Virus record (IMG/VR): IMGVR_UViG_2897346870_000006
Origin: a virus
Lineage: Duplodnaviria > Heunggongvirae > Uroviricota > Caudoviricetes
Reading direction: 5' to 3' (one strand)
Length of the DNA: 41,822 nucleotides
A program made the position numbers and the translations under genes. Under the pieces are notes generated by a model that was given only the letters and a program-made list of their open reading frames with translations, was not told the DNA's origin and did no database searches. Shown one piece after another: positions 36,844 to 37,450 of the stretch. The first letter of the stretch is position 1. Every line of letters starts with the position of its first letter.

Positions 36844-36864
36844 CAATCTGGATATCCACAACAG
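36844..36864. repeat. Left inverted repeat flanking the gene at 36872-37363
   Basis: CAATCTGGATATCCACAACAG; its reverse complement matches the right repeat at 18 of 20 positions. Confidence 0.65.
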
Positions 36865-36871
36865 TAGTAAT

Positions 36872-37363
36872 CTACAGATTGCCGTTAAGTTTTCTGGACA
36901 ACTCCTCAATGGATGGAGGCGATACGTAATCCGGATTTTTATTCATCAGAAACTTATTTTCACAGTGGAGGCACCTGCTTTTATGAAAAAGCTCATCTTC
37001 GCTAACCGGGAATGGTTGAAGTATCGATACTATCTTTTGTCCAAAACATTTTGGGCAAAGATGCATGGTTATGCTGCCACCGTTCACGATTACCTCCTTC
37101 GAGTATACAAAAGTACCCGACTCAAGTTGGTTAAGGATATAGCCTTCCGTCTGAGCCTCAAAGTTTTCGAATTCTGCAATTTTAGCTTTGAGAGAAGCAT
37201 TTATTTCTTGATAAGAGCCCACCAGTTCAACGAGAGACACGCATTCGCGCTGAATAGACGCAAGCTTTGAGTTCAGCTCACCAATAGCCGCATTTACTTC
37301 AGCTTGAGTTTTTGCCTCGTTCATTAGTTTTGCAATCTGGGCTGTTTCACGAATAGCCGTCAT
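36872..37363 (-). CDS. Hypothetical coiled-coil protein with C-terminal CxxC...CxxC zinc-ribbon (163 aa)
   Basis: Start placed at MTAIRETAQIAKLMNEAKTQ...; C-terminal HLCPKCFGQK...SRCLHCENKF; the ORF-track extension to 37651 translates into arginine/proline-rich text over GC-rich DNA and is unlikely to be coding; own terminator downstream. Confidence 0.5.
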   Translation of the reverse strand: MTAIRETAQIAKLMNEAKTQAEVNAAIGELNSKLASIQRECVSLVELVGSYQEINASLKAKIAEFENFEAQTEGYILNQLESGTFVYSKEVIVNGGSITMHLCPKCFGQKIVSILQPFPVSEDELFHKSRCLHCENKFLMNKNPDYVSPPSIEELSRKLNGNL

Positions 37364-37401
37364 TGCTGCCGTTAATTCAGCGATCACATTGAATACTCTT
37401 A

Positions 37402-37450
37402 TTGTTGTTGGGGATATCCAGATTAACCGAATCCTTGTTGTTGGGGAATA
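37402..37450. repeat. Right inverted repeat plus partial tandem copy
   Basis: TTGTTGTTGGGGATATCCAGATT (37402-37424) and CTTGTTGTTGGGGAATA (37434-37450), 39 bp upstream of the start codon of the 163-aa gene. Confidence 0.65.

Follow-up and report, generated by a model that had tools for sequence, protein, structure and literature searches.

The window analyzed here is a stretch of 41,822 nucleotides of phage DNA (IMG/VR record IMGVR_UViG_2897346870_000006), and the prophage to which it belongs is lambdoid and KplE1/SfV-like. Just after its early-left promoter region, a single minus-strand gene, referred to here as the cargo gene, lies between the two arms of an inverted repeat; its neighbors in the window include genes for a ParA-like ATPase and cI, and yfdP/yfdQ-like genes. 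The features of the locus are as follows:

36709-36721, plus strand: oL operator (CTACTTTAAGTAG), with the presumed pL -10 (CATAAT) at 36725-36730; putative early-left promoter reading rightward into the element
36814-36833, minus strand: intrinsic terminator of the cargo gene, identified by a terminator scan (GCGUCC-UGUA-GGGCGC and then U6)
36835-36846, plus strand: rRNA-type boxA (GCTCTTTAACAA), with one exact match in the window
36845-36870, plus strand: left arm of the inverted repeat, core AATCTGGATATCC, the first 2 nt being the last 2 nt of boxA
36872-37387, minus strand: cargo gene of the Rip1 family, 171 aa from GTG 37387 or 163 aa from ATG 37363
37399-37424, plus strand: right arm of the repeat, with stem-loop A as its homolog in P22 sas
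37403-37491, plus strand: sas-like RNA region, matched by a profile of P22-type sas (nhmmer E = 4.2e-12)
37420-37448, minus strand: predicted cargo promoter, with -10 TAATCT (37420-37425), a 17-nt spacer and -35 TTCCCC (37443-37448)
37433-37456, plus strand: hairpin B, CCUUGUUG and UAACCAGG on either side of the loop UUGGGGAA
37458-37487, plus strand: pseudoknot-like element, CCAC/GUGG (37458-61 with 37472-75) and GCCUG/CAGGC (37465-69 with 37483-87)

The open reading frame of the cargo gene ends with its stop at 36872 and, as originally called, encodes 163 aa from the ATG; the in-frame GTG is an alternative start that would lengthen the product to 171 aa, the length of most of its database homologs. 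The original prediction that this product combines a coiled coil with a zinc ribbon was also sound, based on a long N-terminal helix and four invariant cysteines (C111, C114, C139, and C142). In the AF2 model (pLDDT 83.7), helices at residues 3-24 and 28-79 are followed by a beta-rich domain with the four-cysteine zinc ribbon. Rip1 (ring interacting pore 1) acts in phage defense by sensing small-terminase or portal rings and forming a pore. The cargo protein was matched to the Rip1 of HK446 (PDB 9oox_L) by phmmer (E = 2.7e-7 over residues 14-150) and to Rip1 by Foldseek (E = 3e-6, probability 1.0, TM at most 0.71 when normalized to the target), with 27-28% identity between the two proteins, and it also matches phrog_1244. 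Searches of the cargo families against Pfam and PADLOC returned nothing informative, and the link to Rip1 comes solely from the structure and PDB searches. Based on these comparisons and the modeled fold, we consider the cargo protein to be a homolog of Rip1, a prophage abortive-infection pore protein. Members of the Rip1 family have an N-terminal helical pore-forming half and a C-terminal ring-binding domain (PMC13434031), and the predicted model of the cargo protein has this layout, an N-terminal helical half followed by a C-terminal beta-rich domain.

The inverted repeat surrounding the gene is real and non-random. The copies of about 20 bp that were first noticed are part of two arms of 26 nt each, which a repeat search of the window found to be 85% complementary and 528 nt apart. 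The 20-mer TTGTTGGGGATATCCAGATT matches the minus strand at 36845-36864 with two mismatches, and no such match was found in 100 dinucleotide-preserving shuffles of the 41.8-kb window. Beyond the arms, the sequence common to both outer sides is only the 3-bp AAC. A partial third copy at 37434-37450 is present, as had been claimed, but represents one side and the loop of the separate covarying hairpin B. The Rfam search of the window returned nothing for the arms or the sas-like element, its only match being a sub-threshold one to STnc100 next door.

The guess that a pL-like promoter lies nearby was correct, with pL/oL situated about 100 nt upstream of the left arm. A motif search of the window identified the operators of this phage as CTACTTWAARTAG, with oR sites at 34462 and 34485 and oL at 36709; the two copies of this 13-mer at oR compare with 0.02 expected by chance. 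The presumed -10 of pL aligns with the pL promoters of SfV and e14 (TTGACA-N17-ATAATG). About 100 nt after pL is the boxA (GCUCUUUAACAA), which is identical to the boxA of the E. coli rrn leader and, together with the adjoining TCTGG, has 17 nt of identity to the 16S-23S spacer boxA region of many Gammaproteobacteria; when contigs were scanned for further arm variants, 89 of the 120 matches were rRNA 16S-23S spacer boxA sites. Neither an N gene nor boxB was found between pL and the cargo slot in the window. The terminator of the cargo gene also forms in the minus-strand fold and is kept in most related loci.

To the other side of the cargo gene is an element with resemblance to the sas RNA of P22. 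The profile, built from the sas sequences of P22, ev207, HK446, and Pocitis76, had 37403-37491 as its only significant match in the window, and Kp4882-1 and SfV were matched by both the window element and P22 sas, thereby forming a bridge between the two. These matches lead us to assign the right element to a homolog of the P22 sas antisense RNA/sieB promoter module. Reportedly, P22 sas derives from the pL transcript (a finding attributed to Ranade and Poteete in 1993). The layout of the sas-like element, cargo and pL matches the P22 record, in that the element immediately precedes the cargo gene and is antisense to its 5' end, and this gene is oriented opposite to the pL operon. In P22, the role of sas (sequence in PMC13397905) is to switch the translation of sieB (PMC12197685). 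The window locus and the sieB-esc and sas systems of P22 and lambda have in common an exclusion or abortive-infection gene, in the window one presumed to be lysogen-expressed as well, that is opposite to, and inside, the pL operon, and the likeness to P22 sas extends to a pL-sense upstream element of about 90-125 nt, G-loop hairpins and the motif ACCACC..GCCUGA..GUGG..AAAAG.CAGGCAC. However, the window cargo is not SieB/Esc, as BLASTP found no similarity and the Pfam SieB family was matched by P22 SieB only. In addition, P22, ev207, and HK446 form stem-loop A of sas as a local hairpin, whereas the 5' partner of this stem in the window is about 530 nt away, past the gene and beside boxA.

The right arm is predicted to hold the -10 and the start site of the cargo gene. 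In an alignment, each position of the candidate promoter has its counterpart in the annotated sieB promoter of the P22virB-3 record (TGTACCCCTACAGCGAGAAATCGGATAAACT); as in P22, the promoter would be embedded in the sas element at homologous positions, with transcription starting near 37413-37415, within the right arm. A consensus sigma-70 scan called no cargo promoter, so that the assignment depends on the homology with P22 PsieB. Across 55 distinct cassettes the right arm hardly varies, and its AGATTA is the same in every one. Hairpin B has compensatory changes in five of nine pairs and 93% of its cells are paired; the G.U at its loop-closing pair in 53 of the 55 cassettes places this hairpin on the plus-strand RNA. 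The pseudoknot-like element (96-98% of cells paired, with the double changes CCGC/GCGG and GCCUU/AAGGC in cassette L132) is the most widely conserved part of the sas-like RNAs, being present in P22, lambda, HK446, e14, and SfV. When isolated, the 101-nt right element has an ordinary folding energy (z = +1.1).

The architecture of the locus recurs. Positions 36500-37900 of the window are present with 100% identity in the chromosome of E. coli APEC O18 (NZ_CP006830.1). The same frame of boxA, arm and opposing arm encloses at least four unrelated cargo families (Rip1-like, 2-TM, ECs1072-like, and LprI-like, three of them uncharacterized) in heteroimmune prophages with different backbones, as was found when the repeat pair was sought elsewhere with different cargo. 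Among 109 loci retrieved with the right arm, 108 have a boxA-like sequence 410-900 nt upstream of it, as a rule with the left arm next, and the presence of the left-arm ATATCC behind boxA-TCTGG is associated with that of the right arm (Fisher p = 2e-9). About 215 sequences of the frame entered the analysis, and the shortest cassette is about 410 nt. Cargo-specific sequence starts and stops exactly at the inner edges of the arms, while the flanks are kept in thousands of genomes, and the longest open reading frame is on the minus strand relative to boxA in 93 of 95 distinct cassettes, the other two resembling decayed genes. The repeat marks a swappable slot for anti-phage genes just after the early-left promoter. 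Since both frame elements are conserved, cargo would be swapped precisely between the arms by homologous exchange. Searches of the literature on sieB hotspots, on boxA and RNase III in phages and on morons with inverted repeats retrieved no description of this repeat.

The proposal that the repeats delimit a miniature mobile cassette held in part. The same arm pair does occur with these unrelated cargoes, but no transposase, empty site or occurrence outside the boxA...sas frame was found, and the element is an exchangeable slot, not a transposon. Like integron cassettes and MITE-like elements, it carries varying cargo at a set place behind a promoter, with short conserved repeats on both sides; unlike them, it is without a recombinase or transposase, its repeats are inverted rather than direct and attC-type, and neither arrays nor target duplications were found. 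A transposon or MITE-like origin was rejected on the basis of the single boxA frame shared by 108 of the 109 right-arm loci and the lack of an empty-site palindrome beside boxA. An origin from a split palindrome or "empty site" was likewise rejected, as AATCTGGATATCCAGATT was found in only four unrelated viral contigs and in none of them beside boxA. A compact ancestor consisting of boxA and a short hairpin was not found in searches of the loci and viral contigs.

The potential of the two arms to pair as RNA is conserved. A strong duplex is retained by each of the 58 distinct arm pairs (mean -27.9 kcal/mol, compared to -10.4 when the arms are shuffled and -11.6 in controls from within the cargo); as the right arm hardly varies, cognate and non-cognate duplexes are almost equal (-27.9 versus -27.4 kcal/mol). 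Across the 55 cassettes, 89.8% of structure cells are paired, compared to 26-42% with the partners slid, and in the structure as a whole 12 pairs are changed on both sides versus 5.4 +/- 1.5 in shuffles (0/500). Within the arm helix 85% of cells are paired, but only four of 20 pairs have both-side changes, each in one lineage; the outer half is the best conserved and the inner half is paired in just 50-70% of the cassettes. Compensating arm variants are found in L071 and L093 (AATCTGGATGACT with AGTCATCCAGATT), in L061 (GATACCCC with GGGGGTATC) and in SfIV (GGT with ACC). Other constraints may act on the outer 7 nt at either arm: AATCTGG is found behind boxA in rrn spacers, too, and in phages that have no right arm, and CCAGATTA is the predicted -10.

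Several observations bear on which strand would carry the helix. Both the MFE and the centroid folds of the plus-strand RNA (671 nt) contain the long-range helix, with z = -4.0, and those of the minus-strand RNA also contain it, with a weaker z of -2.0. Mismatches in the arm helix are G.U rather than A.C in raw counts of 71 versus 14, although the left arm is rich in C and A and the per-site rates and transition/transversion ratios are equivocal, and these counts were set aside in assigning the strand. Six of 27 boxA loci that do not have this arm sequence have a different long-range complement directly after boxA, including repeats of 19 and 22 nt, compared to 1 of 189 control positions (p = 1.4e-5), and in one such repeat, from a T7-like phage, the two DNA mismatches are G.U in the plus-strand RNA. 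Several of these other boxA-linked repeats enclose plus-strand open reading frames, so that only the boxA transcript can carry both arms. If transcription of the cargo begins at the predicted site within the right arm, its mRNA would not include the outer half of the helix, which the pL transcript would contain.

A precedent for a helix anchored in this way is found in the rRNA operons, where Nus factors bound at boxA tether the leader arm to RNA polymerase and the 16S stem is a site for RNase III (PMC4807359; PMC10250234). We calculated with RNAduplex that the E. coli rrn leader and post-16S spacer form a duplex of -64 kcal/mol, its 5' strand starting right at boxA. In the window, as in these operons, boxA is directly followed by the 5' strand of a predicted long-range helix, and a long untranslated RNA is enclosed. 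The window differs in that the enclosed RNA is 0.5 kb antisense to a protein gene, not rRNA, and in that the helix is about 20-26 bp, the predicted rrn 16S duplex being much longer and stronger. By analogy, we propose Nus binding, tethering and RNase III cleavage at the window locus. The explanation that we favor, to which we give an about even chance of being right, is that the arms in the pL transcript form a boxA-tethered long-range helix like that of the rRNA leader and trailer, which loops out the RNA antisense to the defense gene and probably makes an RNase III site. Weighing against it are the thin covariation in the arm helix, the other possible constraints on its outer 7 nt, the formation of the same helix in the minus-strand folds, the ordinary folding energy of the isolated right element and the failure to find a compact ancestor.

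According to this explanation, pL would be repressed in the lysogen and transcription of the Rip1-like gene would begin at a separate promoter, with the -10 and start predicted in the right arm, and run as far as the terminator just past boxA. On induction or infection pL would fire and the polymerase would read the plus strand, with boxA made first and expected to recruit NusB/NusE and their partners, then directly the left arm, the next ~530 nt of untranslated RNA antisense to the defense gene and, lastly, the right arm, hairpin B and pseudoknot that make up the homolog of P22 sas RNA. We infer that, in vivo, the boxA-Nus tether would keep the left arm near the polymerase, as in rRNA operons, until it could pair with the right arm in a helix of about 20-26 bp, closing the anti-cargo RNA as a loop and probably creating an RNase III site. 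The predicted outcomes are that the long untranslated stretch would be shielded from Rho, that antisense/sas-like RNA would be made as a discrete species and the early mRNA downstream would receive a defined 5' end, and that, in lytic growth, the phage would use the antisense RNA to silence the abortive-infection gene that it carries, a form of self-immunity.

More tentatively, and as a possibility rather than an expectation, boxA-tethered helices in phages may be a general copy of the rRNA leader-trailer design, with the partner 0.25-0.9 kb downstream, by which Nus-modified polymerase would traverse and loop out a plug-in of the early transcript and, via RNase III, excise it; together with the sas-like RNA this could form a universal slot in lambdoid prophages, where any lysogen-expressed abortive-infection cargo would gain antisense self-immunity on lytic entry. 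If the favored explanation is true, RNA looping by boxA and Nus factors would extend from rRNA maturation, its best-documented case, to the early transcripts of phages, and the locus would offer a small (0.7-kb), genetically tractable system in which to study it. An induced prophage would then escape its own Rip1-type pore by means of the pL antisense/sas-like RNA delimited by the arms.

Among the alternatives, the one that survives best, which we nevertheless think unlikely, assigns no RNA function to the repeat and regards the arms as two independently constrained DNA elements of duplicative origin, the extended boxA and the cargo -10/start, whose paired role is to supply linker homology for cargo swaps of the Red/RecET type. 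Such linkers are consistent with cargo bounds that fall exactly at the inner arm edges between flanks conserved in thousands of genomes, with AATCTGG after boxA even where there is no right arm, with the invariance of AGATTA expected of a -10, and with the few double changes in the arm helix. They also have a precedent in the T4-type phages, in which conserved regulatory cassettes mediate modular shuffling (PMC2839356). Linker homology leaves unexplained, however, why the presence of the right arm is mirrored in the inner 6-13 nt of the left one (p = 2e-9), why the variants in L071/L093, L061, and SfIV are compensated, and why long-range repeats of different sequence lie directly after boxA in unrelated phages; moreover, the homology required for exchange is in direct orientation from one genome to another, and an inverted copy inside a single genome does not supply it.

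Pairing could instead take place in the cargo mRNA, on the minus strand, a reading to which we give still less credence. The mRNA for the hok toxin is kept stable and poorly translated by its fbi fold-back until it is processed, and in a similar manner the 5' end of the Rip1-like mRNA would pair with its own 3' UTR, leaving the message stable and poorly translated until processing or binding of the sas-like RNA. The likeness to hok/sok includes a toxic membrane-active protein, a cis-antisense RNA to the 5' region (the sas-like element would be the partner here) and complementarity between the two ends of the gene. The left arm does sit in the 3' UTR of the cargo gene, since it is between the stop codon and the terminator, the helix is present in the minus-strand folds noted above, and a pore-forming abortive-infection protein should need tight control (PMC13434031). 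Yet the start within the right arm, as predicted by homology to P22 sieB, drops the best-conserved outer half (AAUCUGG...) and leaves the inner half, so that, unlike in hok, most of the 5' arm would be outside the mRNA. The strand evidence also favors the opposite transcript: the G.U pairs in hairpin B and in L062 point to the plus strand, the analogous boxA-linked repeats elsewhere enclose plus-strand open reading frames and the z-score of the minus strand is the weaker one.

It is far less probable that the arms are paired sites for a conserved host or phage DNA-binding protein, with a DNA loop that controls the cargo promoter or blocks transcription from pL. Each arm contains the palindrome GGATATCC, and the overlap of the right arm with the predicted -10/start would be a natural position for a repressor. 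The idea that the arms are paired cI/cro operators did not hold, as the operators of this phage are CTACTTWAARTAG and differ from the arms, and the arms are common to heteroimmune phages, including those with SfIV-type cI and RacR-type repressors (the similarity between the SfIV and window cI proteins is confined to the S24 peptidase domain). No phage-encoded binder co-varies with the arms, because phages whose repressors and downstream genes are unrelated have the arms in common. Furthermore, variant arms alter their sequence yet keep their complementarity, which fits pairing better than a fixed site, and the neighboring elements covary as RNA.

We see practically no chance that the repeat is a site-specific inversion switch of the Hin/Gin/Fim type flipping the gene relative to pL, as originally suggested: this reading has in its favor only the geometry of inverted repeats around a single gene beside a promoter and is effectively refuted at the level of assemblies, where a synthetic inverted-junction query (at least 80% coverage) matched 0 of 5,426 complete E. 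coli genomes, 1,369 of which carry parts of the locus, and it has against it the cargo orientation fixed throughout the 95 distinct cassettes apart from the two decayed-looking exceptions, the lack of an adjacent invertase (the only recombinase being the prophage integrase at 40659, 3.2 kb off), and the gene's own terminator and predicted promoter in fixed orientation.

With regard to Rip1 itself, the described Pseudomonas genes are flanked by terminase genes rather than placed in a pL slot (PMC13434031), and the texts on Rip1 that were consulted do not mention the boxA/arm regulatory frame. The slot can be recognized by sequence as boxA-AATCTGGATATCC ... GGGGATATCCAGATTA-hairpin-pseudoknot and holds small genes of at least four families, and it therefore permits a cheap search for new candidate defense genes in thousands of enterobacterial genomes. 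One rip1 gene, that of HK446, has the same slot as its location: it lies between N and ral beside a sas element and runs counter to pL.

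The inverted repeat is real: its two arms, 36845-36870 (left arm, AATCTGGATATCCACAACAGTAGTAA) and 37399-37424 (right arm, TTATTGTTGTTGGGGATATCCAGATT), are 26 nt each, 85% complementary and 528 nt apart as determined by repeat search of the window, and the 20-mer core, which has two mismatches to the opposite arm, had no match in 100 dinucleotide-preserving shuffles of the window. The same search recovered the additional copy that the original prediction placed at 37434-37450. As proposed, the arms enclose one minus-strand ORF, of 163 aa from the ATG at 37363; the ORF ends at 36872, and a GTG at 37387 gives 171 aa, the length of most of its homologs. 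Cassettes (arm-to-arm units) carrying this family of enclosed gene also have a local pairing, CAATCTG...CAGATTG (repeat I23, 36844-36855 with 36870-36881), between the left arm and the stop-codon region, which would compete against a long-range helix.

The window is a lambdoid KplE1/SfV-like prophage, and 36500-37900 is 100% identical to a stretch of the E. coli APEC O18 chromosome.

Features of the repeat region and its surroundings
34166-34429, minus strand: cro
ending at 35240, plus strand: LexA-like cI
35411-36487, plus strand: ParA-like ATPase gene, in the place corresponding to lambda rex
within ~36709-36730, plus strand: putative pL -10, CATAAT, aligned to pL of SfV and e14
36814-36833, minus strand: predicted intrinsic terminator for the enclosed gene, just upstream of boxA
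36835-36846, plus strand: perfect rRNA-type boxA, GCTCTTTAACAA, by sequence match
37420-37425 (reverse complement), minus strand: predicted -10 of the enclosed gene, TAATCT, within the right arm, by alignment to the P22 sieB promoter
37433-37456, plus strand: hairpin B, loop UUGGGGAA, with 5 of 9 pairs compensatory
37458-61 with 37472-75: CCAC/GUGG helix, 98% of cells paired
37465-69 with 37483-87: GCCUG/CAGGC helix, 96% of cells paired
beyond the repeat region, all plus strand: yfdP/yfdQ-like genes, excisionase and integrase

The motif CTACTTWAARTAG is present in two copies between cro and cI and in one at 36709-36721 (chance expectation, 0.02), which places a putative oL/pL at ~36709-36730, directed rightward into the repeat. 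Together with the -10 alignment, this bears out the pL-like promoter that had been suspected nearby. This puts the arms in the pL leader. They are not the paired operators once suggested, since the cI operators are the CTACTTWAARTAG sites, from which the arms differ. The end of boxA and the start of the left arm overlap by two bases. Next to oL/pL, on its upstream side, is a palindrome, GACAACAACAAATATCTACTTTTTGTTGTTGA (36661-36707; repeats I7 and I17), containing CAACAA/TTGTTG, a motif shared with the inner portions of the arms; a second operator, a terminator and a coincidence are all conceivable. The ATPase (358 aa, ParA/MinD-like) occupies the interval from cI to oL, the site of rexAB in lambda, with a terminator after it (36495-36514). 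Its PADLOC matches to PDC-M28B, a candidate system, are weak (E = 6e-9, P-loop only), and the gene may be another defense gene active in the lysogen.

The enclosed protein had no match in Pfam or PADLOC. Among the 120 matches listed, all homologs are annotated as hypothetical and those named to an organism are enterobacterial. Its AlphaFold model (pLDDT 83.7) has helices 3-24 and 28-79 followed by a beta-rich domain with four invariant cysteines, and the best PDB match of this model is HK446 Rip1 with the T6 small terminase (9oox; Foldseek E = 3e-6, probability 1.0). Rip1 was also matched at the sequence level (phmmer, E = 2.7e-7), and tblastn also retrieves genes of Pseudomonas DMS3, JBD30 and D3112 and HK620 hkaP. 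The name Rip1 stands for "ring interacting pore 1"; this prophage defense consists of one protein, which assembles around small-terminase or portal rings to form a lethal pore (PMC13434031, a review; PMC12908700, a meeting report).

By megablast, the flanks of this gene are kept in thousands of E. coli prophages and in SfIV, SfV, SfII, mEp460 and ST64B, with a variable middle. In O157:H7 Rac-like prophages, 36835-37495 is present at 93.6% identity in another backbone with the RacR repressor and different neighbors. The similarity of the window's cI to that of SfIV is confined to the peptidase domain, and the frame (boxA through the right element, that is, the right arm, hairpin B and a pseudoknot-like part) is therefore common to heteroimmune phages. 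Scans of IMG/VR with boxA plus TCTGG and with the right arm produced ~215 loci (numbered with L). A boxA-like sequence lies 410-900 nt upstream in 108 of the 109 right-arm loci with sufficient upstream sequence, usually followed by TCTGGATATCC..., and among boxA loci the presence of ATATCC after TCTGG tracks that of the right arm (both, 20; right arm only, 5; ATATCC only, 1; neither, 29; Fisher p = 2e-9). Three unrelated minus-strand protein families occupy 95 distinct cassettes, and a further family occurs between variant arms.

Cargo families
Family 1: the window's family, phrog_1244, minus strand
Family 2: "ECs1072 family" protein, phrog_5286, found in SfIV, minus strand
Family 3: two-transmembrane protein, phrog_6315, minus strand
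Family 4: 171-aa secreted protein, weakly LprI-like, between variant arms

The longest ORF is on the minus strand in 93/95 cassettes; the remaining two seem to be degenerate members of the window's family. In two IMG/VR loci (L072 and L133) both arms and the sas-like element are intact, and the antisense ORF is the longest, so that the Rip1-like frame is apparently disrupted. In SfIV (L001, 1612-2279) the ECs1072-family gene is accompanied by a small plus-strand ORF (~68-73 aa) with a strong Shine-Dalgarno sequence directly after the left arm, and the pL transcript would therefore be translated over part of the loop. The suggestion of a miniature mobile cassette thus held in one respect, as the same repeats do enclose unrelated cargo in other genomes, and failed in others: the repeats never occur outside the frame, a search for an empty site found none, and there is no transposase. 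The element is an exchangeable slot, not a transposon.

The ~95 nt from the right arm onward are nearly invariant across loci with differing cargo and downstream sequence. On an alignment of 55 distinct cassettes, four helices together had 89.8% of cells paired versus 26-42% with partners slid, and 12 pairs changed on both sides versus 5.4 +/- 1.5 in shuffles (0/500). The loop-closing pair of hairpin B is G.U in 53/55 sequences, which assigns this hairpin to the plus-strand RNA, and the other two short helices form a pseudoknot topology in which one locus (L132) compensates in both (CCGC/GCGG and GCCUU/AAGGC). The folding energy of the isolated right element is not unusual. The same motifs are present in the published P22 sas RNA (P22 11387-11513; PMC13397905, Table 2), whose 3' part is ACCACCGAGCCUGACGUGGUUAAAAGACAGGCAC; Klebsiella phage Kp4882-1 and SfV bridge the window-type and P22-type elements (blastn), and an nhmmer profile of four P22-type sas sequences has its sole window match at 37403-37491 on the plus strand (E = 4.2e-12), with the right arm aligned to the loop and 3' half of sas stem-loop A. 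This antisense RNA switches translation of the superinfection-exclusion gene sieB (PMC12197685; PMC7067206). It lies just upstream of a gene opposing pL in P22, lambda, ev207, Hafnia phage Pocitis76 and HK446. In P22, sas is reportedly processed from the pL transcript.

The sieB promoter is annotated inside sas in the P22virB-3 record, and position-by-position alignment (P22, TGTACCCCTACAGCGAGAAATCGGATAAACT; window, TTATTCCCCAACAACAAGGATTCGGTTAATCT) predicts a promoter for the enclosed gene with its -35, TTCCCC, in the hairpin B loop, a 17-nt spacer, the -10 TAATCT and a transcription start near 37413-37415. The right arm would then be both the predicted -10/start region and the first part of the sas-like RNA, which would explain its near invariance. 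In e14 of E. coli K-12 (L225, 2118-2540), ymfI (113 aa, minus relative to pL) is in the equivalent slot; a stem resembling hairpin B and the same pseudoknot motif precede it, without boxA or arms. This arrangement suggests that K-12 has an unrecognized sas-like RNA beside ymfI. Directly after the window's sas-like element begins a full-length, sub-threshold Rfam match to STnc100 (37499-37722, plus strand; 40.3 bits versus a gathering score of 47, E = 2e-6), finishing in a T-run hairpin at ~37670-37722. RefSeq protein genes overlie this stretch (ymfH in e14; part of ORF 37693-38220), which may be a structured leader or sRNA instead of coding.

In P22-type elements, including that of HK446, where rip1 is in the sieB slot between N and ral, stem-loop A is local, whereas in the window the strand pairing with ...GGGGAUAUCCAGAUU is ~530 nt upstream and fused to boxA. 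rRNA operons have the same geometry: in E. coli the rrn leader reads ...GCTCTTTAACAA-TTTATCAGACAATCTGTGTGGGCACTCG... (100% match in 5,426/5,426 genomes), and the stretch directly after boxA pairs with the spacer past 16S (RNAduplex, -64 kcal/mol). The leader-trailer helix is essential for 30S biogenesis (PMC10250234), and according to a proposal in PMC4807359, which cites Bubunenko et al. (2013), boxA with bound NusB/E stays tethered to the polymerase and so keeps hold of the upstream RNase III stem arm until the downstream one has been synthesized. Many Gammaproteobacteria, among them Yersinia, Serratia, Rahnella, Photorhabdus, Aeromonas and Photobacterium, have the 17-mer GCTCTTTAACAATCTGG unchanged as their 16S-23S spacer boxA region; of 120 genome hits (L229-L348), 89 have this spacer form, and 23S starts within ~110-225 nt in 43 of the 46 testable hits. 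The phage element therefore copies 17 nt of host spacer.

We consider it an even call that the pL transcript pairs its two arms into a long-range helix tethered by boxA, looping out RNA antisense to the Rip1-like gene. The duplex is strong in 58/58 distinct arm pairs (mean -27.9 kcal/mol versus -10.4 shuffled and -11.6 for internal controls), 85% of arm-helix cells are paired in the 55 cassettes, and a 671-nt plus-strand RNA has the helix in its MFE and centroid folds (z = -4.0). L071/L093 (AATCTGGATGACT / AGTCATCCAGATT; three pairs altered on both sides versus consensus), L061 (GATACCCC / GGGGGTATC) and SfIV (GGT / ACC plus an indel) are compensated arm variants. Covariation inside the helix is thin, with both-side changes in 4/20 pairs, each limited to a single lineage. 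The outer 7 nt may be constrained as extended boxA in the left arm and as the -10 in the right arm. That the arms are conserved linkers of duplicative origin without an RNA role is the best of the alternatives, and we regard it as unlikely. Most tellingly for maintained pairing, 6 of 27 boxA loci without this arm sequence have another long-range complement directly after boxA, versus 1/189 control positions (p = 1.4e-5). Among them are L078, with a 19-nt perfect pair, L012, with a 22/23-nt pair, and a T7-like phage whose 20-nt pair precedes gene 0.3 and has two DNA mismatches, both G.U in the plus-strand RNA; several such loci enclose plus-strand ORFs, so only the boxA transcript has both arms.

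Minus-strand RNA is predicted to fold into the arm helix too, as a hok-like 5'-3' fold-back in the mRNA of the enclosed gene would have it; this reading is weakened because the predicted start leaves the best-conserved half of the arm outside that mRNA, and we think it rather improbable. Protein looping or inversion is very improbable indeed. For inversion, the junction expected from flipping between the arms was constructed and searched in 5,426 complete E. coli genomes, and it was covered at >=80% in none, with parts of the locus in 1,369, which, with the fixed cargo orientation and no invertase, rules out the proposed inversion switch at the level of assemblies.

A boxA-tethered arm helix would loop out ~0.5 kb of untranslated antisense RNA and would probably be an RNase III site; Rho resistance, a discrete antisense/sas-like RNA that confers self-immunity while the phage itself grows lytically, and a downstream mRNA with a defined 5' end would be expected. 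The finding is directly testable. The Rip1 gene family (2026), the sas/sieB module (1993) and the rrn boxA/leader-trailer design are already known. The literature searched in full text held no description of a boxA-fused long-range repeat in place of sas stem-loop A, of its conservation around at least four cargo families, or of the recurrence of boxA-adjacent long-range repeats in other phages.

In IMG/VR T7-like contigs (L062 and L104), a 55-aa ORF with a boxA copy on either side precedes a gene 0.3 homolog (Ocr-like, MAMSNMTY...), and the 20-nt repeat runs from directly after the first boxA to ~250 nt on, just before the second. From boxA to +900, L078 has three successive units of a TTGACA-N17-TATAAT promoter plus boxA; the 19 nt after the first boxA are the exact reverse complement of the next promoter's -10 region, so that read-through transcripts could pair across two small ORFs.
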